A DNA stretch of 64,000 bases, taken from the IMG/VR virus record IMGVR_UViG_3300005573_000001; one strand, written 5' to 3'. Numbering within the stretch: position 1 is the stretch's first letter; every line of letters starts with the position of its first letter. This DNA is from a virus. The translations under genes and the position numbers were made by a program. The notes below the pieces were generated by a model that saw nothing but the letters and a program-made list of their open reading frames with translations, searched no databases and was not told where the DNA came from. Positions 2,123 to 47,336 of the stretch are shown here, piece by piece.

Positions 2123-2542
2123 ATGAGTACAGATATGCTCTTCTCTAAGGAAGGAGACATCCAAGTCGTACCTAAAGCACAGCTTGCAGACGGTACGGTT
2201 CTTTACGATATAGCCATAACTTACGACGAAAATGCCCTCAGTCAGATAGTATATAATAGGATCAAGACACAAGCACCGGACTGGTTCTTACACCCAACCC
2301 TTGGAAGCAACCTAGAGGACTTGATTGGAGAGCCTAATAGTAAGCTGACAGCAGTACGCGGCGAGGGCATGATTATGCAAGTCTTGACGTATGACAACCT
2401 ACTCAACGCAAATGCAGTATCCGTTAAGGGAATCCCAACAGCACACGACACAATAGTATTTATAATTACGGTCACTGTCAGAGGCACGCGCAATATAGTA
2501 ATCCCAGTCACATTCAACCTGTACACAGGTATTAGTTCATAG
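2123..2542 (+). CDS. baseplate wedge protein, gp25/GPW-like (XkdS/DUF2634-like)
   Basis: 139 aa with pattern RIKTQAPDWFLHPTLGSNLEDLIGEP; precedes the baseplate J-like gene. Confidence 0.7.
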   Translation: MSTDMLFSKEGDIQVVPKAQLADGTVLYDIAITYDENALSQIVYNRIKTQAPDWFLHPTLGSNLEDLIGEPNSKLTAVRGEGMIMQVLTYDNLLNANAVSVKGIPTAHDTIVFIITVTVRGTRNIVIPVTFNLYTGISS

Positions 2543-2551
2543 GGTGATAAC

Positions 2552-3361
2552 ATGTTACCAGGTAAAACATATGACCAAATATTAACCGATATGCTAGCGG
2601 ATATGGTTAAGATGACCCCGTTCACATATACTGAGGAAGGCAGCATAGCACGCTCGTTTTTCGAAGTAGTAGCATATCAAATAGGCGACTTATACTCTCA
2701 ATTAGAGGAAGACGTCGCTAACTGCAGAATATCTACAGCCACGGGAAGCTACTTGGACGAAATAGGGCAAATCGTAGGATGTACAAGGGGAACTGGCGAA
2801 GGCGACGAAAACTACCGATACCGTATAGCTAATCAAGTATATACGGCAGCTAAGTCAAACAAAACAGCCCTCGACATACTATGTAGACAAGTAGACGGAG
2901 TTAAAGACCTAATTTGGATGCCATACTCCAATGGTGTCGGCTCCTTCTCCGTATATGTAATTACGGATGAAATAGACACACCAAACGCTGTAGTCAACGC
3001 AGTACAGAACATAATCGAGCAAAACCAAGCGCTCGGTATAAGTGGCTACGCAAAGAAACCAACATTAATCCCAGTAGACTTGAAGATGCAAGCCGTATTT
3101 CCAAACAACACTCCCGATAGCTTAAGAGTACAGACGTGCGATACTATAGCCACGGCAATTGCTTCATATATAAATTACCTGCCCATGGGAGCTTCCTTAT
3201 CAATACAAGATATAAGGCAGAGTATGAAGGCTTCATACAATATAATGGACATAATCCCACAGGGTATAATTATTGCCGATATAGCAAGAGAAGTTACCGA
3301 CATGTATGCAATTAAGCTGGACGAGCGTTTATACGCGAGAAACATCAACGTGACCAAGTAG
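2552..3361 (+). CDS. baseplate J-like protein
   Basis: Motifs EGSIARSFFEVVA, TATGSYLDEIG and GEGDENYRYRI. Confidence 0.8.
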   Translation: MLPGKTYDQILTDMLADMVKMTPFTYTEEGSIARSFFEVVAYQIGDLYSQLEEDVANCRISTATGSYLDEIGQIVGCTRGTGEGDENYRYRIANQVYTAAKSNKTALDILCRQVDGVKDLIWMPYSNGVGSFSVYVITDEIDTPNAVVNAVQNIIEQNQALGISGYAKKPTLIPVDLKMQAVFPNNTPDSLRVQTCDTIATAIASYINYLPMGASLSIQDIRQSMKASYNIMDIIPQGIIIADIAREVTDMYAIKLDERLYARNINVTK

Positions 3362-3370
3362 GGATAATAT

Positions 3371-5038
3371 ATGGCAATTAACAGAAAAACCCGGTCAATG
3401 ATAAACATGTTTCCGTCATGGATGGAAACCAGACGGAATCAGGATAGCAACGGTGCAAGGCTTCTAAATGTCTGTGGAACGCACCTCGATATTGCCGAGA
3501 ACGATATAAAGGATTTTCTATACGACAGTTTCATAAGGACAGTCGACTTAGACGCCGTTGACCTAATCTATAAGGCACAGTTATTTACCGACGTACTCTT
3601 CGCAACCCACCTAGAGGTTGTTGGATATATCGGGAATACCGCCTATACCCTTATAGATGCTGGAAATTTGCGCTCATTCTATATGGAGGCAGAAGACAGT
3701 AATGTCTATATAGCAGACAGAATAGACCGCGTAGTATATGTACGAAGACTGTTCGACAGAATAACCGTCAACGGCGAAGAGTGCCCTATAGAGGCACAAC
3801 ATGTATGGAACGCACTCGACGAATTAGGATTACTAGTAGGTGTGCCAAGGCTTACCGGCGAAGGTAATGCAGAATACCAAGCTCGTATCCTAAACAGGAC
3901 TGAAGCCCCGGGAAGCGACAATAGGAACGCGTTTATCAACCACGTAAGAAGAAGTCTTGGGCTCAGTCCGGGAGAGATAACGGTAAATTCACTCAATACC
4001 TTGGCCTTTGAGGGGAGCCTACTCAATAGCGACGGTACTCCAAGCGATACATTAATAAAGTACGTAGAGAGCGTAAACTCCGTACTACCTATGATTGTTG
4101 GTAAGGGACAATGGGATAAGGCCTATTGGGATGCACTTGACGAGGCCAATGTAGGATTTTGTTATCTACCACATGTATGGGACGTATCGACAGATGTATG
4201 GAGTGATAGCGACTTTCAGTCTGGGTATGGTAGCGGAGACGACGTGCTTATATCCAGCCCAGAGGAACAACCCGATACCCAAGAGTTCGACTACTGGGTA
4301 GGACTGCGCGGTAAATATGTAGAGAAGACTGCGTCATACCCAGAACACACGTGCTCACTCAAGCTGTATGCAGAAGGTACGATAGACAGTATAGACGTCG
4401 AGCCAGAGGAATTCGACTATACTATAATAGCTTCCCCACGCATACCGTTATTAATGACGATTAGAGCAAACGATACCTGGGTACAATCCGTACATGCTGA
4501 TCCCAATAACCTAGATGCAATAACTGACATTAGGACGACAGGTGAAAGCCCAACTGCATCCGACTTTATAGTCCAGCATAGTAGAGACAGGCTGCAGCTC
4601 TTTTCAGGCACCGAATACAGGAGCCCTCAGGCGGAAAGGGTCCAAGTTAAAGTGGAGCTGTATCCATCTCTAGACAGAAGCGCCGCACCCGTCGTCGACG
4701 CTATATCCCTTCAATGGAGAGATGGCAATAATATTAGCCACATACTAAACTTTACCGAATACACGCAGAGCACAAAGGCAATCTACTCAAGCGGCAACAA
4801 CTATATAGCCACATTCGATGTCGACGGTTCAGTCACTAACGTGCTGACTGCTCAAAATATCGTGTCTACTAATATAGAGTATATTGCTGGTACTAACGAC
4901 GATGCGTCGATAACAATAAGCAAGGGAACTTACACAAAACTAATCGACACGCAAAATGAATGGCACATAAACCAGAACAAGCCGCTGTCAAGTAACATCA
5001 ACATATCTACCAATGGTACAATAAACCTGAATATATAA
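3371..5038 (+). CDS. baseplate/tail structural protein
   Basis: 555 aa; WNALDELGLLVGVPRLTGEGNAEYQARI resembles a baseplate wedge repeat; structural context. Confidence 0.55.
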   Translation: MAINRKTRSMINMFPSWMETRRNQDSNGARLLNVCGTHLDIAENDIKDFLYDSFIRTVDLDAVDLIYKAQLFTDVLFATHLEVVGYIGNTAYTLIDAGNLRSFYMEAEDSNVYIADRIDRVVYVRRLFDRITVNGEECPIEAQHVWNALDELGLLVGVPRLTGEGNAEYQARILNRTEAPGSDNRNAFINHVRRSLGLSPGEITVNSLNTLAFEGSLLNSDGTPSDTLIKYVESVNSVLPMIVGKGQWDKAYWDALDEANVGFCYLPHVWDVSTDVWSDSDFQSGYGSGDDVLISSPEEQPDTQEFDYWVGLRGKYVEKTASYPEHTCSLKLYAEGTIDSIDVEPEEFDYTIIASPRIPLLMTIRANDTWVQSVHADPNNLDAITDIRTTGESPTASDFIVQHSRDRLQLFSGTEYRSPQAERVQVKVELYPSLDRSAAPVVDAISLQWRDGNNISHILNFTEYTQSTKAIYSSGNNYIATFDVDGSVTNVLTAQNIVSTNIEYIAGTNDDASITISKGTYTKLIDTQNEWHINQNKPLSSNINISTNGTINLNI

Positions 5039-5050
5039 GGGGAGATCACA

Positions 5051-9100: not shown

Positions 9101-11562
9101 CACCAGAAGTAACGAAGCTCGAACAGGCGACAAACGCCGTCATAACAAGTACTGGAACACTGCTTGAGCCAGCAACCACAAACTTAGTAACAGACCCAAC
9201 CTTCAATATCTCAGAAGGTACATATACAAAGGTATACGAGCTGCGTGGCAGCGATCCAGCAAGCTGCCAGATGGCATTGCTACACGGTGCATACACGGTC
9301 AACGAGGCAGGGATAATAGAGGCTAACGAGGCTACGATGGCGGCAACCGTCGTCCCCTTCCATAATATGCAGACTCGTATGGAGTATATATATAACGGAG
9401 ACTCAGTCAGCCTCGTATTTTGCTACAACGAAGATATAGGCTACCTCGAAGCAAAGATAACTCCGTACAACCTTACGCTACAAAGGGTGCAAATAGTACC
9501 AGACTACGGCGAGCGTGTAATTGCGACATTGGGTACGGCAGATATAGTCGAGGAACCTCAATTCACCATAGACTCCAGATATAGTATCACCGTTACAAAG
9601 ACAGACACAGTATTAGTAGTAGAGGCCACAACAGACGGCACAAGTATTACACTTACTGCCGAGGACAACCTGTATCAGTATGGTGGGGTTGGATTCAAAT
9701 GTGAGAACTCGATACGGCTTGACAATATCCAGGTTCTAGAGTGCCTAGGAGCATGGGAGCCAACACCAAACGATAGCAGCGGGCCGTCCGTAGACCTCTA
9801 TAATAACACCATATACATTACAAGTATAGACCAAGCCCATGGCATAGGCCAGACAGTCACCACAGAGGCTGGGTATGCTTATACGCTGTCCTTCGATTAT
9901 ACCGGCAATAGCGCTGTAATCGGTATAGACGATGATTACACAAGTGACACCAACGACACCGGGACTGTTAAGAGGGTCTCGCGTACATTTATTGCCTCCG
10001 AGGAAGCGCACCGCATATTTATAGGCAGCAGCGGAGAACAAACGATTGCGGTTGCTAATGTACAAGTAGAACAACACCCATACGCTACCCAGTTTACGCC
10101 AAGCGCAAGGGGCGAAGGTAGTATAACTATCCCATCCTCAAGCATCAGTCCCATCGTAGGAACACTCTATATCTCGTATACTCCGTTGACAGAGATTACA
10201 GAGGAAATTAATATCATATCCCTAACGGGCAGCGAAATGTCGATAAAAACTGATGGCAACACCGTCACATTCTACTATGGCGAGACGAGCACTAGCGTAA
10301 ATATCCCCATAGAGACTGGAAATGAGGTACAAATAGCTGCCTCATGGAATGCCTCAGACAACGAGTTTGAGATGCAACTAATCAAGCTTATGGTATGTAT
10401 AGAGGGCAGTGTCGCAAGTAATTATGCGACAGTATCAAGCAACGATCACATATCTATAGCTGAAGACAGTATACTAATGATCGGCGCACAGGAATCTATC
10501 CCGGCCATATACAAGAACCTCAGAATATACGACTACATATTTGGCGACTCATTTGGTGTACCAGACGACTACGTCTACGCGGCTGCTCTACAGGGTGTAA
10601 TTACCACGTACGACAACTCATATATAGAAATCAGCCCTGCCCCAGTTAACGGACAACCTATACTTGTATACGACGAAGACGGTCCATACACACATATAGC
10701 CTTCGTAGACAACAACAAGTTGGTCCCATATACGACTGAAATGCACACGTGGAGGGGGGAGCCAATCAGCCTGCACTATGTTGTCGATCCATCGTTCGTC
10801 ATCGTAATTAAGGATGAAAAGGGCGTACCCTTACTAAACTCAGATGAGGGTAAAATAATCATATCAGGCAACACACTTACTCTGGATGTAGCCGAAGAAG
10901 AGATAGAAGAAAGAAGCGAGGACGAACTATACGAGGGCAACATCTGGATTACGTATCGTCCGGCCAAATGCTTCACCTCAGAATTCTTTGACGACAAGTG
11001 TGTAATCCGCCTAACAGGGTTTTGCGGCAAGCCAGTAACTATAGTCTACGAGTCCAATCCATACGACTACGAGCATGCGCTAATAGATACTGCCGACCTG
11101 AATCCGATGAATAACCCAAACAACTTCGGCTTTATACGCATCCACCAGCGGACCGACGTAGCGACATCCTTCGACGTCAAAGTAACCCCAGAAACCCTTA
11201 GGGCGAATGGACACGAGTTCACCGTAATCATAATAGATGCCAAGGATGGAGTTGGAAACCCAGTTAGCAATGTAAATTACACATTCTCTGGATTGAGATA
11301 CGGCACGCTAGAGCGTTACATAACAGATGAACAGGCCGAGTTTATAGCGAGACGCGACAACGCGGAAGACCAGGCAAGCTTCAGATCAGAAAACGGATAC
11401 CTCATCACACTGAATGAGATGGCAGGAAGACAGATATTTATATATACGCCCAGAAGACATACAAACCTTGATCCCACCTACGGTACCGTAGAGGAGATAA
11501 ACCTGTTAGACACTGAGTCAGGATTAGGTATGGCAATCGATATAAGACTTATGCCAGCATAA
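6133..11562 (+). CDS. large virion structural protein (1809 aa) with probable carbohydrate-binding/LamG/Ig-like domains
   Basis: Very long beta-rich ORF with LLEPATTNLV..P and VQVEQHPYATQF motifs typical of phage tail CBM modules. Confidence 0.6.
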   Translation: MAQYNKNFYGASFYGDINVLSGQYASNWIPLSDDPISGTLNVTINAELPVASYDYQHVVMRDEFNGSVIPTVTEVINGDTYIKLSGTHVAEFRVTCRKAEIVYLKGPGYGSLAVNGYNELDEYVNDWTVNCNYATIEEASGVSGFCWPTLHDYTYYLCASSGTVYIRCINAHVTDVQVQMVVSDTASDLSKTSFETLSNGEWELVSGSKYTRAMEVSPFSDCIVYAFKIIMSTSDDTLAPSVSDIMFQTNDTNVYASKATWVADITLSNPSSIDNVYCSKESIEGTAVHIYTRSYNGTAWSAWSPVYNCGKYIGLANDQLTETIYTPVLDPSSTNVSAVIRRLVVGQYAPAGTRITYKLINQDLGNIRNYYAFMAATDPSNDTYTVTDALTSVSGSKVLYNDVFINTMGMDLNSISSPVRVAITLKRDNLTSPTPIFRFATIEADATYEERFFVSPCDTMADGTPNTTKRYAYASAVYNRLGGNVPAAFVLDEADYEDILIGNATYITPENMNFSPPTKVEGLAVNTTSTISTPTYIIEPEYVLYRVVDGTETKVPLNKNELAVFWESGESTRSLTTTLPNDVLIAQVTPYDPTGTANIDEYNIFLAYQYGYGVVVYGSDKTIEPGNTFVVPRLKGRQPILDGVKYAYYLVNGSANASGIENTNEQVAIAWGGTQYQEPYADIVEDSIHNGTTNRAITIASTNPDRYGRIEWISEAKRFSSIIINENDDSVATPARVFLRSVGDFPTVAPQANLDKYIVVAEPGSVMCRGKIVPDSRIHAELTITGYTPVDMDNEPIIRTAGSAHDTLSREAISGTARVVNSEGVTLMPTISGSDIDWSGVFPEGTPEDGEIYYVSYQYNTPSEGIITARAVDSKGHDYYENKVRTHAWSSAKLYHSQGICAPREDYVSATLPAISESGIWGTIDTKVENIEYYVLDNNPWVTTFIKDSKVVGTLRNRKPSQQWLPSIHNGYYYLNKDEYYKFSQPAEYTPEVTKLEQATNAVITSTGTLLEPATTNLVTDPTFNISEGTYTKVYELRGSDPASCQMALLHGAYTVNEAGIIEANEATMAATVVPFHNMQTRMEYIYNGDSVSLVFCYNEDIGYLEAKITPYNLTLQRVQIVPDYGERVIATLGTADIVEEPQFTIDSRYSITVTKTDTVLVVEATTDGTSITLTAEDNLYQYGGVGFKCENSIRLDNIQVLECLGAWEPTPNDSSGPSVDLYNNTIYITSIDQAHGIGQTVTTEAGYAYTLSFDYTGNSAVIGIDDDYTSDTNDTGTVKRVSRTFIASEEAHRIFIGSSGEQTIAVANVQVEQHPYATQFTPSARGEGSITIPSSSISPIVGTLYISYTPLTEITEEINIISLTGSEMSIKTDGNTVTFYYGETSTSVNIPIETGNEVQIAASWNASDNEFEMQLIKLMVCIEGSVASNYATVSSNDHISIAEDSILMIGAQESIPAIYKNLRIYDYIFGDSFGVPDDYVYAAALQGVITTYDNSYIEISPAPVNGQPILVYDEDGPYTHIAFVDNNKLVPYTTEMHTWRGEPISLHYVVDPSFVIVIKDEKGVPLLNSDEGKIIISGNTLTLDVAEEEIEERSEDELYEGNIWITYRPAKCFTSEFFDDKCVIRLTGFCGKPVTIVYESNPYDYEHALIDTADLNPMNNPNNFGFIRIHQRTDVATSFDVKVTPETLRANGHEFTVIIIDAKDGVGNPVSNVNYTFSGLRYGTLERYITDEQAEFIARRDNAEDQASFRSENGYLITLNEMAGRQIFIYTPRRHTNLDPTYGTVEEINLLDTESGLGMAIDIRLMPA

Positions 11563-11575
11563 GGAGAGAATCCCA

Positions 11576-14500
11576 GTGACCAAGAAACACATAGACAGAT
11601 TATCCAGCGTCGGCAAAGGAAGTGGCATTACGCAGGAGCATGGCACATATTCTATAGGAATCGTAAGGGAAGTTCCGTCAGATAGTGCCAACCTTGCCTT
11701 CGTATCAGGTGGAAAGCTCTCTGTTAATAAAAATATATCCCTACAAGACTATTGCAACACAATAGTTGAAAATCAACCTGCCGACTATACAGCAGACTTT
11801 CATATCCTTACACAAGATGGATCCGAGAGACTAAGGTTACGTATCGATGCTGGTGCATATACTTTTCACACCAGCGACCTCCTCATAACAGACGAGTTTT
11901 CCGTCCCTAATACTCCTCTCGATACCATCTACCCACTATATTATAAAGCCGTACCGTCATACAGTCTATACACAACCGACCTTGCACATAGTGGACTTAT
12001 GCGGCAATACGCGGCGGGTTACAATAGAGATAAGTCAGCATTCTCTCCCGTAGTAGATGATACTAAACCTATGGTATACTTCGGGCAGGACCTAATAATA
12101 CGGCACAGAAATGGGTCAGCCCTGTCAGATACCGAGGCTTATAAGGTAGTGCTAACCAAGTCTGCAAGCAACATATATAATGTCGTAATCTATACAAACT
12201 TCCAGAATACAGACAACAGGGAGTATATCGTAAGATATAGGCGCGGCCCAACAGCGTGGTTCGAAGAGAGCCTCAATGCCGCAACTTTCTTTACACGGGT
12301 CGAAACCTTCGATGCCATTAGTGAGACTCAGGAAAACTACCTCGCAGGCAACGAAGCAAACATATATACATACTACATAGACCAGGAAAGCCCTGGCAAG
12401 TATAATGTCTGTGCACCATCAAAGTTTGTCACTATCAATAATGCCGCCAGAGTGCCGGCAAGATTTAGGTATAGAATAGTCGGTACTGCACGAGATAGTT
12501 ATAACAACTATAACAAGTGCACGTTAAAGATAGGTATTATCTATGCAGCCGCATCCGGCAACGACAATACGCCATGCCATGTACTTGCCAGTATGAATGC
12601 AAAGGCTCCATATGGTTTGCCTTCATTCGTAACACTTACCAACCCGTATGCACACCCTGAATACTCGCCGTCACAAGCCGAGTACTGGTTAATAGACATT
12701 AATACGCCCTTAGAAATACTAGAGAATTACGACGTCATACTTATGACTGGCTACGGCGCAGTAGACTTGGACATCTATGCCGACAAATTCAACTCATATA
12801 TTACGGACGGTGGCAAGCTATGGATCGACAATCCGGCCAGTGGAGAAGGAACCTTCATCCCGTCTCTAATAGTGAACTCGTCCGACATTATCGGTGCTCA
12901 CTTTACCACCAATGAGCCAACGGCATATGAAATATCTGTCCCTACGTCTACTTACCTTAGCAACTACTATGCAGTCAATGGCACCGACATAGCATACGTG
13001 GATCAAGGCGCTATAGTAAAGGCCCCAATAGAGACAGCGACGACATGGATTACTCTCGTATCTGATAGTAATAACGACAACGTTGTTATATACCGCCAGT
13101 GCGGTAACGGGGCCATTATGATGAGCTCTTGCGGGCTCTTTAGAGAATACGCGAGGGCAGGCGGCTCCAACAATAATGCCAAACTGGTAACAAACCTTCT
13201 CCTAACGCTGGCGGAGAATAAATACATCTCCACGCCATGGATTTATGATAACGTCCACCACATAAGCAGCCTATTCGATAATGAATACGCCATAGGCGGT
13301 AGAACAGTATATCAGAAGGACGTAGTCAACGGAGTGGCTGTAGCAAAGAAAATACTTGCCCCATCGACCCTACATGCCATACTGCCATACATAGAGTATA
13401 ACTTGTCTAATGCCACACTCAACTTGGTGCCCCAGTTCCAGCAACTTAGAAACAACGTATGGACTGATGCCACACAGATCGAGTATGCCGGCACAAATGA
13501 CGGCTCGGAGCCACTGTGGGTCTACTGCAAAGCCCCATTATCAGCGTTTACCCCGCTTACTGTAGGATATAAAGAGTCCGACGTTAGAGTATGCGACGAT
13601 ACTGTGCCGTGGCAGGTCACCATAGTAGCCTATGCGAGCGTCTGGGGCGTAAACCAGAACGGACAGCCGGTATGCTCGAAGGTATATGGCACATCTAAAA
13701 AGGTCATACCATTTACCGTTAAGTATAGCGATGGATATAAGGATATAGCTACGCTAATTAATGTTCTGCCAGACTTATACTATGACAATAGTAATGTCCT
13801 ATGGCGCGACAAGACCAAGGTATCATACGAAATACGTATAGACACGATAGCCGGCGTACCTAATAGCAAAGTGAATATAGGGTTATATGACAAGCGCCTA
13901 AGCAAGTTCTATTATGCCAAGGATAACACCATAACAATCCCATATACTTCAGTTTTTGAACAGAGAAGCAATCCAGCGGCTATAGGTGGGGCAGAAATGA
14001 CTCTTAGGGCGTGGACGAACGAATACAGTATTATTGCTAACGACAGGACGTTTGGGGTATGTCCCGACACGAATAGTACCAGGGTATATCTTGAACTACC
14101 AAACAATACGGACGAGCGCGAGCAATGGCATGTAAGGATAAGGAATGGCCGGTTCGTGCGCAGCAGTATAGACAAAAACAACTACTTGCAGTATAGTACG
14201 ATAGTATCCAGCATCTATAATGGTACCTATTCGGTAATAGACGAGGTGCCGCTCGAAACAGGAGACATCCTTGAATATTCGGTAGAACCACAATACTTGA
14301 AGCAAGCCTTCTGGAGAAGCGACGGCATCAAAAGGGTCATACACGAGAAGGCACAGTACGTCAGAGATAATACAATTATGGTAATGAATAGCCCTCTAAT
14401 CATTACCGACCTCAGCGTTACAGAAGAACTGGTATCGCTCGGAGACGGCATTACATTTAAGGGCACCTACGACCTGTGGGACGAGGATGTAGTCCCAGTG

Positions 14501-38276: not shown

Positions 38277-39650
38277 ATGATAACAAAGGTACTGGACACA
38301 AACATTCTCCTCGACCGCCCATTCGAGGAGACACTTAAACTACTATCTGAGAAACACGACAACATTAAAGTCGTAGTCCCCCTCTCGGTACTAGTAGAGC
38401 TAGACACCTTCAAGAATGGCAGCAACCCAATCAATGCAAACTGCCGGTCCACTATCAGGTTTATAGAAACCCTGCGCCACCTTGGGGTAACTAAAGGACA
38501 AAACCTTGTAGACGGTGTAATCTTCGGTAATATAAGGTTCTGTGTACACATAGACACAGGAAACCTGGACGAGACGAAGGTAGACAACCTCGTAATCAAG
38601 ACGGCGAGAGAACTATCCGAGTATGAGAATGACGTGGAGATACTCTCTGAAGACATACACGAGCGCATCCTTGCCAATATATGTGGCATCACGTCAAATA
38701 GTCTAGCCAGTAAAGACATCAACATCGATAAGCTTTACACAGGTAAAGCAGAAATACAGATAACCGAGAATCAGCTCGAAGAGCTGTACAAAGACAGAAA
38801 TAGCAGGCAGCTTAGGACTAGACGAGAACTAGAGTATAACCAGTTCGTAATCATGACGGATCCGACCGGACAAGTCCACTACGGTATATACGATAAGGAG
38901 TTCCACGTAATAAGGGGACTCAAGGATACATACGAAGCATGGGGCATTAAGCCCAAACGTGGCAAGGATGGACGGTCCATTAGAGAACAGACAATGCTGA
39001 TGCACCTATTGCTTGACAAGAATATAAACCTAGTCACGTGTGTAGGTCCATCTGGCAGTGGAAAGACATTTCTAGCGCTTGCAGCGGCGCTTGAACAGAC
39101 TATATATAAGGAAATCTACGATAAGATAGTAGTCATCAGGCCGCTTGTACATAATGACATAGGTGCTCTGCCCGGTGATAAGCTGGATAAATTACGACCG
39201 TGGATGGGGTCGGTGTTCGATAACCTCGAGTATCTTCTATCAATAGAAGGTACAAGCGCAAAGTTGAAGGACCTAACAGGTTACGGAAGCACTATAGACC
39301 GCATTAACGACCTAATCCAGAACGACATAATCGAACTAGAGGCATTCAGCTTCATACGCGGCAGGAGTATACCAAACCAGTTTATTATAGTTGACGATTG
39401 TCAGAACATGTCTGTATCACAAGCAGTAACTATTCTGACACGCGTAGGGGAAGGTAGTAAGATAGTCTTACTAGGGGACATTGCCAAACAACAAATAGAC
39501 GACCCAAGGCTATCCCCAAGCAACAATGGACTTACATACATCGTAGACAAAACTAAGGGTATAAGCCCATTAGTCGGCCATATAACAATGGAACAGGTAG
39601 TAAGGTCCCCGTTAGCAGAATTAGTAGTAAAGATAAGTAGCATGGAGTAG
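38277..39650 (+). CDS. phoH: PhoH-family protein with N-terminal PIN domain
   Basis: VLDTNILL (PIN), GPSGSGKT, IGALPG, IRGRSI, TRVGEGSKIVLLGD and RSPLAE. Confidence 0.92.
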   Translation: MITKVLDTNILLDRPFEETLKLLSEKHDNIKVVVPLSVLVELDTFKNGSNPINANCRSTIRFIETLRHLGVTKGQNLVDGVIFGNIRFCVHIDTGNLDETKVDNLVIKTARELSEYENDVEILSEDIHERILANICGITSNSLASKDINIDKLYTGKAEIQITENQLEELYKDRNSRQLRTRRELEYNQFVIMTDPTGQVHYGIYDKEFHVIRGLKDTYEAWGIKPKRGKDGRSIREQTMLMHLLLDKNINLVTCVGPSGSGKTFLALAAALEQTIYKEIYDKIVVIRPLVHNDIGALPGDKLDKLRPWMGSVFDNLEYLLSIEGTSAKLKDLTGYGSTIDRINDLIQNDIIELEAFSFIRGRSIPNQFIIVDDCQNMSVSQAVTILTRVGEGSKIVLLGDIAKQQIDDPRLSPSNNGLTYIVDKTKGISPLVGHITMEQVVRSPLAELVVKISSME

Positions 39651-41264: not shown

Positions 41265-43283
41265 ATGGCATACCCAGTACTAAATAACTGGAGTGCTGTT
41301 CAGAGCGCGCCCCCTATCAGTAAGAATGACCTTATACAGATACAGTACGCTGTCGACGAGTATAGGGCTAAATTCAAACATAGGGATATGACGCCGTTCG
41401 CGTGGCACTTCAAGGGTAATAAACTACAAGGATGGGAAGGTTGCGACATAGTTGGCTCATGTGTAAGGCCAACTGATGTCATGGTTAGCCCAGTACTTGT
41501 AACTGGCGACGACATAGGATGTACTATTACGTGTAATGCAGACGTATACAAGTACTTTAGCATGATGGTTACAGTCGAAGGACACGAGGACGCAGAGGCG
41601 ACACTATCATACTACAGCGACGAAGAGACGGTAGCAGGGTCCGTAAGTCTAATTTGCCCAGCAGGCGGACCATACATAATAGCGCACGACCTATCTAGTG
41701 AGGCAAACTATACCGGTACAATATATCAAATAACCCTAAGCTTCTCCTGCAATGTTCTAATCCAATATGTCAAGATAGACAGTATACAAACAATCTATAT
41801 CGACGAGAGAAGAGTTGTGGAGGCACAATACTTCAATACTATCCTTAATGGCGTAGAAGAAGTATCTAATCCTCCGAGAGCTCCAACCACACAAAGAACC
41901 AACAAGATTGACCTTAGAACAAACTTAGCTAAAGTAGGAAAGCCAACAAGCAAGAAAAAGCTCAGAAACCTGCTTACAGCACTAGAAAACATATATCAGT
42001 CGGCATACAACGGGTGTGCGGCGTGCGATATAAATACCCAAACCTGTACAGTAGCTTACGGCATGGTTGGTTGTGCGACCTGTAATACATGCAACGGATA
42101 TACAGCTTGTAGCTGCGACATGAGTTGCTATGAGGAAAGCGTACGGTGCAGGTGCGAACCAGCGAGTTATGGTGTCCATTGTACATGCAACCAGACGGCA
42201 CACACGGCATGCACCTGTAATACCACACAGTACAGTACGGGCTATGGAGCCGAGGTAACAGCGACATGGGAAGCCACATGCACATATACATACCGTGACA
42301 GACAGAATGCCAGCACGTATGGGTGGCGTGGCGACCCCGAAGATAATTACGAAGGGTGGCACCCATGGATATATCACGGGGCCTTCAGAGACGAGGACGT
42401 AAATCCTATATATCCTGACTACGGATTACATCGAGGGTTTATATTCTTCGATACAGCCAACATCAGAGCCACGCTAGCCGGAGCACAAATCCTAAAGGTA
42501 AGACTATACATAAAACGGGCAGCTACTCCACACGGACAAGTCAATGGCGGGCGCGTAAAGTTCAATCTGCACAACTATGGTCCCGATATATACGAAACCC
42601 CGTTACCAGACATCAGAACGTACCAACCACCAAGTAAGTACTTTGCTAACCCGACGGAACTGTTAAAGTACGGGCCACAAGTAATGCCTAACACGGGGTG
42701 GTTTGCCACCAACGGCAGCGGATATATAGCCGGCACCGATACTCCAGACGGCAGCATATATACGACGTGGCCGCGCGGCACAGCAAGGTGGATAGTCCTA
42801 CCGCTATGGTACGGCACTAAGATAAGAGACGGAGAGGCGCAAGGCATTGTTTTGCATACCAACATTACAGAGGAAGACACTGGCATAGACAATGTAAAGC
42901 GCACGCGCAGCTATAACTACAACAAGAGCTACATGTACTTCTGCAGCTCGCCAATGTCTGCGGGAGCAAAGAAACATTGGCCCAGCTATGTCAAGTGGTG
43001 GGAGCCAGCCAAATTAGAGATTACATACAAACCCCTACTGTGTGGCTGTTATACAAGCAAATATAACCAGTGCCTATGTAATATGGCCAAATACGGGTAC
43101 TCCTGTACATGCGATGGAACAGATATCGCAAGCAGGGTCTGTACATGTAACCAAGCAGCATACGGAGCAACGCCATGCTCAGTATGTGACATAACTAACG
43201 ACGGCTATAGTGCGTGCACGTGCAATATAGGCTGTTACGAGGATACGTGCAGGGATTGTCACAACACTGGATACCATACATAA
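41265..43283 (+). CDS. cysteine-rich protein (two CxC-rich tracts flanking a DNRLRE-like domain); candidate radical SAM substrate
   Basis: Dense CxxC/CxC repeats at about aa 250-320 and 590-670; central RGFIFFD..IRATLAGAQILKVRLY...PAKLEITY. Confidence 0.7.
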   Translation: MAYPVLNNWSAVQSAPPISKNDLIQIQYAVDEYRAKFKHRDMTPFAWHFKGNKLQGWEGCDIVGSCVRPTDVMVSPVLVTGDDIGCTITCNADVYKYFSMMVTVEGHEDAEATLSYYSDEETVAGSVSLICPAGGPYIIAHDLSSEANYTGTIYQITLSFSCNVLIQYVKIDSIQTIYIDERRVVEAQYFNTILNGVEEVSNPPRAPTTQRTNKIDLRTNLAKVGKPTSKKKLRNLLTALENIYQSAYNGCAACDINTQTCTVAYGMVGCATCNTCNGYTACSCDMSCYEESVRCRCEPASYGVHCTCNQTAHTACTCNTTQYSTGYGAEVTATWEATCTYTYRDRQNASTYGWRGDPEDNYEGWHPWIYHGAFRDEDVNPIYPDYGLHRGFIFFDTANIRATLAGAQILKVRLYIKRAATPHGQVNGGRVKFNLHNYGPDIYETPLPDIRTYQPPSKYFANPTELLKYGPQVMPNTGWFATNGSGYIAGTDTPDGSIYTTWPRGTARWIVLPLWYGTKIRDGEAQGIVLHTNITEEDTGIDNVKRTRSYNYNKSYMYFCSSPMSAGAKKHWPSYVKWWEPAKLEITYKPLLCGCYTSKYNQCLCNMAKYGYSCTCDGTDIASRVCTCNQAAYGATPCSVCDITNDGYSACTCNIGCYEDTCRDCHNTGYHT

Positions 43284-43291
43284 GAGAGACA

Positions 43292-44518
43292 ATGGACATT
43301 CGTAACAATCAGGCATTAGACGCGGCCGAAACCTTCCCAGTTACATCAATAACGCTAGAGCTTACGAAGAGATGTCCCCTAGCGTGCGACTACTGTTTTA
43401 GTCATTGTTTCAACAAAGAAACCAACCAGACAGACCTATCCCCTGAAATGGGAAAGAAGGCCATAGACTGGCTGTTCGATCCAAAGACTAACGGTAACGC
43501 CACTTCAGTCGATATAAGCTTCTGGGGTGGCGAACCGTTAGTTAAGTGGGACTTACTAAAGGAGCTTGTACTCTATGCAGAAGGCAAATCCAAAGATTCG
43601 GGCATAGGAGTAACATTCGGCGGGACTACTAACGGTGTACTCCTAACACCAGACAAGTTTGATTTCCTGGATCAACATAGTATATTTTTCCTCCTTTCAA
43701 TAGACGGTACCCGCGAACATCACGATGCCTTTAGGAGGTTCCCGAATGGCAGCGGGTCATGGGACATTATTATGCGTAATGCAGAACAAGTCCTAGCCCG
43801 CTGGCCATTCTATAAAGTAAGATTATCATTCACAGTAGAGCACATAGAAGGCCTGCTTGAAGACATCAAGTGTCTCTACGACAATGGATTTAGAGAAATT
43901 ATATATTCTCCAGTATCGGAAGGGAATTGGACGCACGAAAAGTTGGACACGCTGAAGAGCGTCTTCCATAACATTGCACAATGGTATATGGAGACTAAGA
44001 TAAACGGCAAGCCAATTAGTATTAAATATATAGACGACGGGTGCAACCAGTTAGTCAGACCTATGGGAGAACAAGCTCCATGCGGAGCCGGAAGGGGGTA
44101 CGTAGGGATAGCCGTAGACGGGAGTATCGCACCATGCCACCGATTCCATAAAGTAGACGACATTCGTCCATGGTATGAAAAGGAGACCTGCTTAGGGCAC
44201 ATAGAGTACGGTATACTTAACCACAGCCTAAGGAATCAGTTCACAAGGTGGAAACCAGAGAACGTAATGTGCAGCAGGTGCGGGGCATTTAAGGTATCAT
44301 GTACCGGAGGCTGCTGGGCCAGTAACTATGACATAAACGGAGACATATGCAAACCAACTGAGCCGCTTTGCACAGTATCACAGGTAAACCTAGAGGTTGC
44401 CAAAGCGATACGAGAGACAGAGAGAGAATACTACAAGGCAATAAGCTGCAACCACAACGACATCACGGCATACCTAAGCAAACAGCTCGACATAATAAGA
44501 CAGACCTTAGGAGACTAA
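43292..44518 (+). CDS. radical SAM/SPASM-domain enzyme (anSME/ranthipeptide maturase-like)
   Basis: CPLACDYC, FWGGEPL, TTNGVLL, SIDG; SPASM CGAGRG..DGSIAPCH..CSRC..SCTGGC..C..C. Confidence 0.92.
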   Translation: MDIRNNQALDAAETFPVTSITLELTKRCPLACDYCFSHCFNKETNQTDLSPEMGKKAIDWLFDPKTNGNATSVDISFWGGEPLVKWDLLKELVLYAEGKSKDSGIGVTFGGTTNGVLLTPDKFDFLDQHSIFFLLSIDGTREHHDAFRRFPNGSGSWDIIMRNAEQVLARWPFYKVRLSFTVEHIEGLLEDIKCLYDNGFREIIYSPVSEGNWTHEKLDTLKSVFHNIAQWYMETKINGKPISIKYIDDGCNQLVRPMGEQAPCGAGRGYVGIAVDGSIAPCHRFHKVDDIRPWYEKETCLGHIEYGILNHSLRNQFTRWKPENVMCSRCGAFKVSCTGGCWASNYDINGDICKPTEPLCTVSQVNLEVAKAIRETEREYYKAISCNHNDITAYLSKQLDIIRQTLGD

Positions 44519-45017: not shown

Positions 45018-45275
45018 ATGCTAATAACAAGGAACAACATAAGTGTAGAAATCAGTTTAGAGGAGCTTAAAGAAATTACTAGTTCCGAACAACTAATACA
45101 GTTTATCTTAGAGATTACGGCAGTGCCGGGACAAAACGAGCTGCCAGTAATCCAAAAATCCCCCAAGATGACACCCACCAATAAATATAACATCCTCGAC
45201 AGCGCTATTACCGACATAATCAAGGATAACATCAGGAAAGACTATGGAAGATCAGAAAACAATATCGCCGAGTGA
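45018..45275 (+). CDS. hypothetical protein
   Basis: 85 aa, GGGGAG RBS. Confidence 0.5.
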   Translation: MLITRNNISVEISLEELKEITSSEQLIQFILEITAVPGQNELPVIQKSPKMTPTNKYNILDSAITDIIKDNIRKDYGRSENNIAE

Positions 45276-46059
45276 CTACGAGGAAATCGACAAGTTAGTC
45301 CTAAGGTACCAAAGCGGCGACAGCAAGGCAGCGGAAAGGCTCATAGTGGTTTTCGAACCGCTTATAAAAAAGTACTACTCTATCATAAGAACCGAGTGTA
45401 TAAGTTATAACGACTGGGATACACGACGCTTCCTGCGCCTATTCTGTCCCAGTAAAGAAATAAGGAAGCGCTTCCTACACAAGCCCTTCATGATGCGCTA
45501 CAAACAATACATTGAGGCCGCACTTACGGCGCTACATAGAATGTGCGATCCATTACCCAGCGAAGATATAAGACAAGAGTTAATCACACAGCTCTTAGAA
45601 ATAGCCCATAAATACAAGCCACCAGAGAATAAAAGATCATCATTCTGTAACTACCTAGAAATTTCGTACCCATTCTATATTTACAGAGCCATAATGAAAC
45701 TCACGAGAGAACCGTGCGCCTATAACACAGAACATTCAGTGTCGTACGACGCATACAGGTACATAATCGAGAAGACGTCGGTATACAGAATGGAAGACTC
45801 ATGTATAAACAGTTTACTATGTAACCAAGCTCTAAAGATGTTAGACCCTATACAAAAATACATACTAGATATGTATTATAATCAAGGATTAAATGATACA
45901 AGCATTAGTAAAATTATGGGATATAGCCGACAGTATATACATAGGATAAGACAAGAGGCTGAAAACATTATAGCAGCTCAATTAGGACCGGAGTATAAAA
46001 GAATTTTAACGGCTAAGAGTAAGAGACATACGAAAGATGCCAAAGATCACACACTGTAA
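45244..46059 (+). CDS. RNA polymerase sigma factor-like protein
   Basis: LVLRYQSGDSKAAERLIVVFEPLIKK (region 1.2/2), EDIRQE, SFCNYL and region 4 HTH ISKIMGYSRQYIHRIRQEA. Confidence 0.75.
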   Translation: MEDQKTISPSDYEEIDKLVLRYQSGDSKAAERLIVVFEPLIKKYYSIIRTECISYNDWDTRRFLRLFCPSKEIRKRFLHKPFMMRYKQYIEAALTALHRMCDPLPSEDIRQELITQLLEIAHKYKPPENKRSSFCNYLEISYPFYIYRAIMKLTREPCAYNTEHSVSYDAYRYIIEKTSVYRMEDSCINSLLCNQALKMLDPIQKYILDMYYNQGLNDTSISKIMGYSRQYIHRIRQEAENIIAAQLGPEYKRILTAKSKRHTKDAKDHTL

Positions 46060-46537
46060 GGGATGCGGTAAAGAGATTTCATATCAGACTAAGCCACCGC
46101 AGTATTGTGCAGAATGTAAGACAAAGACTACAACCAAACATAAAAAGGGACCGTTCAAATGGAAAAAAGAGGCCCACCTGTTTCATATCCTAGGAGAACT
46201 ATGCAAGAACTACGAGTGCATATACAATGGGTATTACTCGTGGCTTGTGTCTCCTAAGGGAGAACCTATGCAGCTAGACTGGTATTGTCCTGAGCTAAAA
46301 GTAGCGGTCGAACTACAAGGAAGGCAACATTACGAATATTCAAACTATTTTCACAAAAGCAAGCGAGCATTTAGGTATCTACAGGAATGTGACGCACTAA
46401 AGGTAGTGCAGTGTACAGAACACGGGGTCAAACTAATTATAGTAAAGTACGACAACACAATAACCAAAGAGTACATGCTAACCAAACTAAGGGAACAAAT
46501 CCCAGACATAGAGAAAGTAATAGGTCTTGACCAGTAA
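46037..46537 (+). CDS. zinc ribbon plus Vsr/DUF559-like endonuclease
   Basis: CKGC..CAEC and MQLDWYCPELKVAVELQGRQHY. Confidence 0.7.
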   Translation: MPKITHCKGCGKEISYQTKPPQYCAECKTKTTTKHKKGPFKWKKEAHLFHILGELCKNYECIYNGYYSWLVSPKGEPMQLDWYCPELKVAVELQGRQHYEYSNYFHKSKRAFRYLQECDALKVVQCTEHGVKLIIVKYDNTITKEYMLTKLREQIPDIEKVIGLDQ

Positions 46538-46565
46538 CTACAACTACAGTATAATAGGAGATAAG

Positions 46566-47336
46566 ATGACATTTACAGACGCACTTTATGAAGCAATAAT
46601 TGCCGAGAATATAGAGGATGCGAGTAAACACACAGAGCCTCACATTTACCCGAGTAGCATAGGGTCCTGCTCACGTAAAATAGCCTATGAAGTATTAGGG
46701 TACAAGGGAGAGGATGAAGAGCCTATTGCCTTAATGCGAATGAAAAACGGCACCTACTTCCATGAACGCGTAGAAGCCCTAATTAAGAGGACAGACATAT
46801 ACATAGCTAACGAATACAGGGTAGTCAACGCAAGTAAAAAAATATCAGGGCGGAGCGACCTATTAATTAAAAACATTTACCCGCATAAGCCATCTAATAA
46901 TATTATCAAGCTATATAGGGCCACAGAAACAGAGGAAGAGCCCGAGGTATTATACGAAGGACCAGACAATGATATAATGATCGTAGAGCTGAAGAGCATA
47001 AAGTCCAAGAAATACGCGCAACTACTAAGAGATAATAGTCCTAAGAAAGAGCATGAAATGCAGCTGCAATTGTACATGGAAGAGACGGGTATCAAAGCGG
47101 GACTAATAGTATACGAGAACAAGGATACCCAAGCCATGAAAGAGTTCATTGTAAACTATGACCCCGATATAGTAGCGGCCGTCAATACACAAATAAATCT
47201 AGTATGCGAACATATAGATAGAGGGGAGCTACCACCAAGAGAATACAGCCAATCAGACGGAGAATGCTTCTGGTGTAAGTATAAGCAATACTGTTGGAAA
47301 GACGAAGACGCTCTAGATCTACATAAGCTCTTCTAG
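46566..47336 (+). CDS. Cas4-like PD-(D/E)XK exonuclease
   Basis: YPSSIGSCSR, GTYFHE, SGRSD, VELKS, QLQLYM and CFWCKYKQYC. Confidence 0.85.
   Translation: MTFTDALYEAIIAENIEDASKHTEPHIYPSSIGSCSRKIAYEVLGYKGEDEEPIALMRMKNGTYFHERVEALIKRTDIYIANEYRVVNASKKISGRSDLLIKNIYPHKPSNNIIKLYRATETEEEPEVLYEGPDNDIMIVELKSIKSKKYAQLLRDNSPKKEHEMQLQLYMEETGIKAGLIVYENKDTQAMKEFIVNYDPDIVAAVNTQINLVCEHIDRGELPPREYSQSDGECFWCKYKQYCWKDEDALDLHKLF

Follow-up and report, generated by a model that had tools for sequence, protein, structure and literature searches.

A radical SAM/SPASM enzyme of a hot-spring phage and the cysteine-repeat protein that it probably staples

Enzymes that staple by thioethers are known so far to act on small peptides in bacteria and on one protein in an archaeon, the latter described in 2026. 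Among the peptide maturases, PapB (of the PapB/PapA pair that yields freyrasin) links Cys to the beta-carbons of Asp in repeated C-x3-D motifs, and its substrate is a short leader-plus-core peptide. Asp is also the acceptor residue for QhpD; for NxxcB it is Asn. CteB, the SCIFF enzyme (PDB 5WGG and 5WHY), is paired with CteA, a 45-residue peptide with six Cys. The archaeal case is that of CrpC and CrpA in Methanococcus voltae, in which mass spectrometry has shown ranthionine thioethers on a large protein (Dieter et al. 2026, PMC13692751). QhpD, as summarised in the same paper, also forms thioethers, and its target is a protein subunit and not a natural-product peptide. Phages go unmentioned there, and our literature search found no paper on the stapling of proteins by a phage radical SAM enzyme.

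Here we analyse a locus from a hot-spring phage of roughly 174 kb, in which a radical SAM/SPASM gene lies directly behind the gene for a large Cys-rich protein, ORF A. The window is the whole stretch of DNA that was analysed, 64,000 nucleotides long. The features of the locus are these:

41265..43283, + strand: ORF A, Cys-repeat protein and presumed substrate (ORF listing, homolog searches)
41322..41789, + strand: conserved N-terminal helix and CBM-type beta-sandwich (AF2, fold match)
42006..42281, + strand: Cys tract 1, residues 248-339 (Cys count, family alignment)
42282..43040, + strand: inserted middle domain, residues 340-592, a beta-sandwich like those of CBM96 and TGF-beta prodomains (fold match, Atlas look-alikes)
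43041..43280, + strand: Cys tract 2, residues 593-672 (Cys count, family alignment)
43292..44518, + strand: radical SAM/SPASM enzyme, 408 aa, without an RRE (Pfam, NCBIfam, CteB alignment)
43373..43396, + strand: CX3CX2C motif, C28/C32/C35 of the enzyme (alignment of relatives)
44081..44371, + strand: SPASM region with the auxiliary-cluster Cys, C264 to C360 (invariant in 23 relatives, CteB alignment)
44441..44473, + strand: degenerate remnant of a tail unit in the enzyme, ISCNHNDITAY (comparison with relatives)

ORF A encodes 672 amino acids and has an AGGAG 8-9 nt upstream of its ATG. Its stop codon, TAA, occupies 43281-43283, and the ATG of the enzyme at 43292 lies exactly 8 nt beyond it on the same strand, with no terminator-like site on the + strand between the two genes. 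The ORF listing begins the enzyme at a GTG at 43214. We rejected this start because the two genes would then share 70 nt and because all relatives begin at the Met of an MDLR or MDIR sequence; the likely start at 43292 gives a protein of 408 aa. Nuclease and PhoH-like genes flank ORF A on one side and a sigma-like gene on the other, placing it amid replication and transcription genes and outside the tail and virion module of the window (1-32 kb). Between 39 and 47 kb the + strand has no Cys-rich ORF besides ORF A, and a search for a hidden gene for a small Cys-rich peptide nearby returned only antisense shadow frames. The short leader-plus-core precursor that defines ranthipeptide and sactipeptide loci was thus not found, ORF A being the sole Cys-rich ORF in the vicinity. 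Neither in the window nor in a related locus (L001) does a protease or exporter gene stand beside the pair. The sequencing-run search listed no RNA runs with the locus.

The enzyme matches the Pfam model Radical_SAM (PF04055) at 48.4 bits against a cut-off of 29.5. The Pfam SPASM model alone scores 17.7 bits, under its cut-off of 21.5, but the set of SPASM Cys is complete (C264, C282, C300, C327, C330, C337, C341 and C360, including CX2CX5CX3C); these residues are kept in 23 relatives and in register with CteB, as expected for two auxiliary clusters. The first-pass annotation had described an intact radical SAM/SPASM gene 8 nt behind a 672-aa protein with two Cys tracts, and both descriptions hold. 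The top NCBIfam models are PapB (NF047865, 228.7 bits, 1.1e-67), SCIFF (TIGR03974, 190.8 bits, 3.8e-56) and QhpD (TIGR03906, 187.1 bits, 4.5e-55), each below its curated cut-off (340, 425 and 453 bits, respectively). Weaker matches are the sactisynthase RumMC (4e-26), anSME (1e-19) and the cyclophane formers (1e-15 to 1e-19). The enzyme thus reaches the curated score of no named maturase family, a point against the thioether reading, and family membership does not reveal which reaction it performs.

How does the enzyme compare with the described maturases? The PapB model is matched over all of its 330 positions, yet the presumed substrate here is a multi-domain protein of 672 aa and there is no pairing of leader and RRE. 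CteB (5wgg) is the best solved relative, with an E-value of 1.5e-42, and its radical SAM and SPASM domains align with those of the phage enzyme. Its N-terminal 95 residues, the RRE, have no counterpart: the radical SAM core sets in after only some 16 residues, and the alignment begins at CteB residue 96 and at position 92 of the SCIFF model. An RRE, which the first-pass annotation had put forward as something to look for, is therefore absent, and so is a peptide like CteA at the phage locus. QhpD uses an RRE and a leader on QhpC, a subunit of quinohemoprotein amine dehydrogenase, whereas no dehydrogenase genes are present here. The arrangement resembles that of CrpC and CrpA: a radical SAM/SPASM gene, CrpC carrying three [4Fe-4S] clusters, stands beside a large Cys-rich repeat protein, and the repeat region is predicted at low confidence in both (PMC13692751). 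The two also differ. CrpC is a member of TIGR04463, for which the phage enzyme scores 55.8 bits against a cut-off of 525, and an RRE helps CrpC to bind the N-terminus of CrpA. The CrpA unit has 17 residues with C-x-x-Q/D, whereas the unit here has 10-12 residues and reads C-x-C-(N/D)-x-x-(C)-Y. Finally, the CrpC system is cellular and archaeal, not that of a phage. With QhpC and CrpA, the large substrate that the first-pass annotation called unusual for such chemistry now has precedents.

The Cys of ORF A, 38 in all, are concentrated in the two tracts. Tract 1 has 16 in residues 251-339 (18.0%) and tract 2 has 15 in residues 593-672 (18.8%). The long ORFs of the window give a background of 1.38%, from which each tract departs with a binomial P of about 1e-13. 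The example passages in the first-pass annotation correspond to residues 306-323 and 626-642. Nine C-x-C units follow the pattern C-x-C-(N/D/Y/E)-x-x-x-(Y/H), and C-x-x-C caps stand at the start (CAACD) and at the end (CRDCHNTGYH). In tract 1 a YNGCxxCD cap leads into the C-x-C units; tract 2 consists of five C-x-C units, one CxxCD and the terminal cap. The tract 1 cap and the first Cys are invariant across 23 members of the ORF A family, and the C-terminal cap is kept in P0002, P0003, P0124 and P0125, with a variant form in L001, L085, L014 and L016. Conserved caps at the two ends would fit a self-folding repeat domain too, and to that extent they count against the pairing. So do the several ORF A units that lack the third Cys and those that have Tyr or Glu at position 4. 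Among the units of the ORF A family this position is Asn in 36% and Asp in 34%; the figures for other carriers of the unit are 64% and 21%. Tandem Repeats Finder detected no DNA-level tandem repeats beneath the Cys repeats.

A repeat of the same kind is found in the enzymes themselves. In nearly all of the 119 relatives the stretch beyond the SPASM domain contains C-x-C-(Y/N)-N-x-x-Y one to three times. The window's enzyme has lost its tail units, the first C-x-C-Y-N unit surviving only in degenerate form, and this counts against the pairing. With 74 sequences, AF2 gives a pLDDT of 94-99 for the enzyme core and 39-62 for the tail. A complex predicted from the enzyme, ORF A residues 583-672, SAM and three clusters scored 0.31 against a mark of 0.32, which decides neither for nor against the pairing.

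The partnership recurs across viral contigs, as the first-pass annotation had proposed to check. In L001 a 516-aa homolog of ORF A lies upstream of the enzyme, from which a single 115-aa ORF separates it, and a sigma-like gene comes after the enzyme as in the window; in L107 a homolog with the four-part architecture of ORF A ends 15 nt before an enzyme that is 58% identical. P0003, of the ORF A family, and P0013 both have a longest contig of 105,980 bp, and their linkage is read from this equality alone. When viral contigs were found through the enzyme clade, 13 of 16 had a carrier of the C-x-C-(N/D)-x-x-(C)-Y unit; the other three, all fragments, had no visible carrier and count against the pairing. 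In the opposite direction, a degenerate DNA pattern for the peptide CTCNNTCY hit 22 loci, of which 12 were single chance matches and one (L088) a spurious ORF; all nine contigs with real carriers also encode the enzyme. Only one of 64 control loci around unrelated radical SAM genes had such a carrier. Altogether the enzyme clade (34-58% identity) and the unit occur together on about 20 contigs, all from uncultured phages in IMG/VR. The carriers elsewhere are tail-tip proteins of the lambda J type (phrog_31, E 4e-35 and 5e-39; Pfam Phage-tail_3), fibre-like proteins with up to about 30 units (L087) and short all-repeat proteins of 111-188 aa (L004, L006, L013 and L095), and the enzyme often adjoins the carrier directly (L012, L013, L015 and L017). 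ORF A differs from these carriers: its N-terminal domain is that of its own family, its two tracts enclose an inserted domain, and its gene lies outside the tail module. These loci were recovered with broader alignments; searches of IMG/VR with a three-sequence alignment (A1) or a single enzyme, and of JGI metagenomes with A1, returned none, and the annotated phage collection yielded no match at either the DNA or the protein level. The sole match in a scan of genome contigs was a 2.6-kb contig binned in a Bathyarchaeota MAG, which we do not accept as evidence of the host.

The folded parts of ORF A bear on what the protein might do. A helix at residues 20-36, with the family motif IDxYRAKF/YxH..TP..W.FHGN, precedes a CBM-type beta-sandwich that extends to residue 175; together they are the best-conserved portion of the family, and AF2 models this N-terminal part at a pLDDT of about 90. 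Its closest folds are 2q1f_B (Z 11.7, rmsd 2.6, 125 aligned), the CBM8 domain 7t7z (Z 11.6) and the phage baseplate protein 8gtc_M (Z 11.5). The middle domain has a single Cys and is found only in ORF A and in P0125 of L107. Its fold matches the arms of TGF-beta/activin prodomains (Z 9.9 for 8fxs_A, rmsd 3.6, 135 aligned; then 9.6 and 9.2), and its Atlas look-alikes by language model and structure are CBM96 clusters (score 0.95, TM 0.51-0.57). The first-pass annotation had called this domain DNRLRE-like and similar to the N-terminus of the tail fibre at 20983. This is borne out only in part: the look-alikes are CBM96 clusters, but no Pfam or NCBIfam model, including the CBM96/DNRLRE-type PF24517, matches even at E 10 or E 1, and the likeness to the tail fibre is marginal (BLASTP E 0.3, hhalign probability 12%). 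The fibre N-terminus itself matches Pfam CBM96 weakly (E 2.8e-4, below cut-off). ORF A as a whole has no match in Pfam, PHROG or NCBIfam; only two homologs of near-full length occur among 5.8 billion proteins, and a profile search gave 35 matches among 1.84 billion representatives. With no PHROG match and a locus outside the structural module, the description of ORF A as virion-like is not supported, and a CBM fold alone does not settle whether it belongs to the virion. Of the earlier proposal that the phage crosslinks a large structural or adhesin protein, the pairing of enzyme and substrate is well supported genomically; the structural or adhesin part is not.

We consider it probable that ORF A and the enzyme behind it are substrate and maturase, and that the tracts are stapled by thioethers without a leader. 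Several lines of evidence point to the pairing: the 8-nt adjacency on one strand with no terminator; top family matches that are all thioether-forming maturases, with CteB as best solved relative and the cluster Cys complete; ORF A relatives beside the enzyme in L001 and L107 and the clade-wide co-occurrence set against the controls; the unit in the enzymes' own tails and the Asn/Asp at position 4; ORF A as the only Cys-rich + strand ORF within 39-47 kb; and the CrpC/CrpA precedent for a large protein (PMC13692751). We infer the thioether chemistry on ORF A from family resemblance, and the occurrence of the modification, its sites and the role of the product are likewise predictions from sequence. 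The enzyme would recognise C-x-C-(N/D)-x-x-(C)-Y directly, with neither RRE nor leader, and 5'-deoxyadenosyl radical chemistry would join Cys sulfurs to nearby side-chain carbons. The likeliest acceptor would be the Asn or Asp after the C-x-C pair, giving thioethers of the ranthionine type. Two flexible tracts would thereby become rigid, redox-insensitive segments resistant to heat and proteases. As these segments flank the CBM96-like domain and come after the CBM-type domain, the finished protein probably binds glycans and serves the phage as an accessory protein or in association with its particle.

Other readings of the same locus were weighed. Might the tracts stand on their own as structural elements or metal-binding sites (zinc, iron-sulfur or disulfide ladders), with the enzyme acting elsewhere, on its relatives' own tails, for example, or on an unrecognised peptide? 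The caps at both tract ends do resemble the capping of a folded repeat domain, and the window's enzyme is without a tail unit. Yet enzyme and repeat accompany each other in both directions across unrelated carriers, the unit is present in the enzymes' tails, no other Cys-rich ORF is nearby, and AF2 finds no fold for either tract (pLDDT about 30 for tract 1) nor for the tails with 74 sequences; we regard this reading as quite improbable. The possibility that ORF A is a multi-core precursor, its stapled tracts being cut out as small bioactive peptides and its folded domains serving as carrier or leader, is more improbable still. It would suit the short all-repeat proteins of related loci, and also the N-terminal helix, since conservation in the family peaks there, as it usually does in leaders. 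Against it stand the missing protease and exporter genes, the folded domain that the tracts of ORF A flank, and the unit's place within tail-tip proteins of other phages, where release makes no sense.

A different reaction on the same repeats is unlikely too, if a little less so than either of these. The enzyme could form a C-C or C-S link to the unit's Tyr or a sactionine at an alpha-carbon, or it could oxidise Cys in the manner of anaerobic sulfatase maturases. Conservation of the Tyr at position 8 (53-76%) is close to that of Asn/Asp, SPASM enzymes of the same superfamily carry out all these reactions, the anSME, YhhB, FxsB and RumMC models match, and the enzyme lies under the cut-off of all thioether families. 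Those models, however, rank at least 40 orders of magnitude behind PapB and well behind SCIFF and QhpD, and the best solved relative, CteB, is a ranthisynthase.

If thioether stapling does take place on full-size phage proteins, viral protein maturation would gain a new class. Such stapling would also explain how covalent, non-reducible crosslinks could arise in particles or accessory proteins that originate in a reducing cytoplasm, in this case in a hot spring. A broader proposal, to which we give somewhat less than an even chance, is that this clade of RRE-less phage enzymes staples a portable unit of 10-12 residues wherever it is inserted, so that the unit acts as a transferable crosslinking tag; the copies in the enzymes' tails would then be pseudo-substrates or self-modified anchors. 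Phages would in that case harden proteins made in the cytoplasm by means of a natural tag, and site-specific protein stapling would have a candidate tool in an enzyme that does without leader and RRE and recognises so short a unit. The unit has been seen in tail-tip, fibre-like and short all-repeat proteins, in CBM proteins of the ORF A type, and in the tails of the enzymes.

ORF A, the presumed substrate, and the radical SAM/SPASM gene are arranged head to tail.

41265-43283, plus strand: ORF A, 672 aa, as in the ORF listing

ORF A has a good ribosome-binding site. The first-pass annotation had described an intact radical SAM/SPASM gene 8 nt downstream of a large cysteine-rich protein, and this holds: the enzyme's ATG at 43292 lies exactly 8 nt past the ORF A TAA and opens a product of 408 aa. 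The listed enzyme ORF starts at GTG 43214; we prefer the ATG, which agrees with the start in all relatives. Searches found no terminator-like site on the plus strand between the two genes and no other cysteine-rich ORF near the pair.

The cysteines of ORF A are strongly clustered. Residues 251-339 contain 16 of the 38 and residues 593-672 another 15, so that cysteine makes up 18-19% of these tracts; across the other long ORFs of the window it makes up 1.38% (binomial P about 1e-13 for each tract). The two CxC/CxxC tracts reported earlier are thus real: they comprise nine C-x-C-(N/D/Y/E)-x-x-x-(Y/H) units, preceded by one C-x-x-C cap (YNGCAACD) and closed at the very end by another (CRDCHNTGYH). 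A tandem repeat was looked for in the DNA of the tracts and none was found, so the periodicity is maintained in the protein and is not the product of recent slippage.

What kind of enzyme accompanies this protein? It has the CX3CX2C motif (C28, C32, C35) and all of the SPASM cysteines. Its top NCBIfam matches are thioether-forming maturases: the models for PapB (1.1e-67, 228.7 bits), the SCIFF maturase (3.8e-56) and QhpD (4.5e-55). Models for sactisynthases, sulfatase maturases and cyclophane formers score much more poorly. Because every score is below its curated cut-off, we place the enzyme in no named family. The closest solved relative is CteB (5WGG/5WHY, E 1.5e-42). The RRE, the leader-binding domain of RiPP-type maturases that the first-pass annotation had proposed to look for, is absent: the alignment reaches back no further than CteB residue 96, and the enzyme has only about 16 residues ahead of its core, leaving no room for it.

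The enzyme and the short repeat C-x-C-(N/D)-x-x-(C)-Y, which we call the unit, occur together on other contigs, most of them fragments. In a profile scan of IMG/VR, 16 distinct contigs encoded enzymes sharing 34-58% identity with that of the window, and 13 of these contigs also encode a unit-bearing protein, or carrier. The carrier is directly beside the enzyme in loci L012, L013, L015 and L017; in L003/L086, a single contig, it lies away from the enzyme. In the reverse test, IMG/VR was searched for DNA encoding C-(S/T)-C-N-N-T-C-Y, and all nine contigs with real carriers also had the enzyme. Around unrelated radical SAM genes, by comparison, a unit-type protein was found at 1 of 64 loci. The co-occurrence across phages on which the pairing had been staked is therefore present.

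Two loci resemble the window closely. The IMG/VR contig L001 has, in order, a 516-aa ORF A family member, a 115-aa ORF, an intein-interrupted enzyme, a RuvC-like gene, an acidic protein and a sigma-like gene, an arrangement that echoes the window. On the 2.6-kb contig L107, assigned by binning to a Bathyarchaeota MAG, a protein with ORF A's four-part architecture stops 15 nt before an enzyme 58% identical to the window's. The longest contig is 105,980 bp for both the homologous protein P0003 and enzyme P0013, the equal size being the sole sign of linkage.

The one matching control locus (L026:9379-10254) may represent a second, more distantly related system of this type. There, a 292-aa protein containing 59 Cys and 16 C-x-C units lies close to a radical SAM protein that shares only 23% identity with the window enzyme. 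At L082:419-6703, on the contig of L004, two tandem enzyme paralogs (E 1e-121 and 1e-123 against the clade profile) and two weaker radical SAM ORFs precede a 551-aa carrier containing 49 Cys, so some phages appear to use several maturases.

The unit also recurs in the enzymes themselves. The post-SPASM tail contains C-x-C-(Y/N)-N-x-x-Y one to three times in nearly all of 119 relatives (36-57% identity); the closest clade always has three copies, followed by a coiled-coil helix. In an AlphaFold2 model of the enzyme built from 74 sequences, pLDDT is 94-99 in the core and 80-94 in the final helix, but 39-62 in the motif-bearing segment despite its nearly invariant cysteines. The window enzyme retains only a degenerate first unit (ISCNHNDITAY), after which the protein ends. 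The L001 homolog (2287-5040) is enlarged to 917 aa by an intein whose middle part is homing-endonuclease-like and which interrupts the SPASM region between ...GAIYPC and HRFHK.

Taken together, the two-way co-occurrence, the unit in the enzymes' tails, the lack of another cysteine-rich ORF nearby and the missing RRE indicate, at the level of sequence, that the enzyme probably acts on the unit itself. From its family resemblance, it would form ranthionine-type thioethers there. Asp is the acceptor used by PapB and QhpD, and Asn that used by NxxcB; the alternation of Asn and Asp at position 4 of the unit fits these acceptors. The unit also contains a conserved Tyr, which leaves room for other chemistry. 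If thioethers do form, cross-links of this kind, being covalent and non-reducible, would be well suited to a protein that is synthesised in a reducing cytoplasm and functions at high temperature. The window DNA is present in two hot-springs metagenome runs of 2017, and the window may derive from one of them; among the sequencing runs listed as containing it, none is of RNA.

The carriers are mutually unrelated proteins of four types.

J-type tail-tip proteins: four units inserted; phrog_31, E 4e-35 and 5e-39; Pfam Phage-tail_3 above cut-off
Fibre-like proteins: up to about 30 units within a globular domain (L087, 87 Cys)
Short all-repeat proteins: 111-188 aa
ORF A family: the fourth type

The L087 protein (10276-12486, 737 aa) has about 30 near-perfect 11-residue units of the ACSCN.TCYGY type. 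They split a globular domain, both halves of which are common to carriers of L004, L011 and L086. Short carriers (L004:2619-2951, L006:484-891, L015:708-1445) have the C-terminal motif KYAP(G/D)(V/S)W(L/M)F(Y), and another group (L014, L016, L085) ends in YRYPW(T/S). Each may serve its class of carrier as a docking or capping motif.

ORF A itself matches nothing in Pfam, PHROGs or NCBIfam. Only two homologs of near its length exist among 5.8 billion proteins; an exhaustive profile search gave 35 hits, about two dozen with a common layout: an N-terminal helix motif (IDLYRAKYRH..TP..WCFHGN), a sandwich, a YNGCxTCD cap and a C-terminal C-x-C-x-x-x-C-Y run. The middle domain is an insertion confined to ORF A and its homolog P0125. 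An AlphaFold2 model from 23 family members predicts a confident helix and beta-sandwich in residues 20-175, then a helical linker, a partly confident beta-sandwich in the middle region and no fold in either tract (pLDDT about 30). The modelled N-domain is a jelly roll of CBM type, matching 2q1f_B at Z 11.7, a CBM8 at 11.6 and a siphophage baseplate protein at 11.5, and residues 340-592 resemble the TGF-beta and activin prodomain arm (Z 9.9, 9.6, 9.2). The middle domain had been called DNRLRE-like and likened to the N-terminus of the tail fibre at 20983. By fold this is plausible, since its look-alikes by language model and structure are CBM96 clusters; by sequence it is unproven, the fibre N-terminus matching CBM96 weakly (E 2.8e-4, below cut-off) and its direct similarity to ORF A being marginal. 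The two predicted domains of carbohydrate-binding type point to a glycan-binding protein, accessory or associated with the particle. The description 'virion-like' finds no support in the locus, whose neighbours are PhoH-like, nuclease and sigma-like genes; the tail module is elsewhere, at 1-32 kb.

QhpC is an established example of a protein with thioether cross-links, and CrpA of Methanococcus voltae, cross-linked by CrpC, has been another since September 2026 (PMC13692751). CrpC has an RRE and belongs to TIGR04463, whereas the window enzyme lacks an RRE and scores 55.8 bits on that model; phages are not mentioned in that paper (PMC13692751). A literature search for phage proteins stapled by radical SAM enzymes found nothing. 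The chemistry class and protein-sized substrates are already known; what appears new is the viral setting, the recognition of a portable unit, putatively without leader or RRE, the copies in the enzyme tails, and the family of ORF A.

The genes around the pair include a 457-aa ORF (38277-39650) that by eye joins a PIN-like N-terminus to a PhoH-type ATPase C-terminus (GPSGSGKT). Downstream lies a sigma-70 region-4-like factor (45244-46059; phrog_351, E 7e-11); a sigma-like gene also follows the pair in L001, so the synteny is wider than two genes. Its end is overlapped by a DUF559/HNH-type homing-endonuclease-like gene (46037-46537; several PHROG endonuclease families, E 1e-13 to 1e-11), and a 269-aa ORF comes next (46527-47336).
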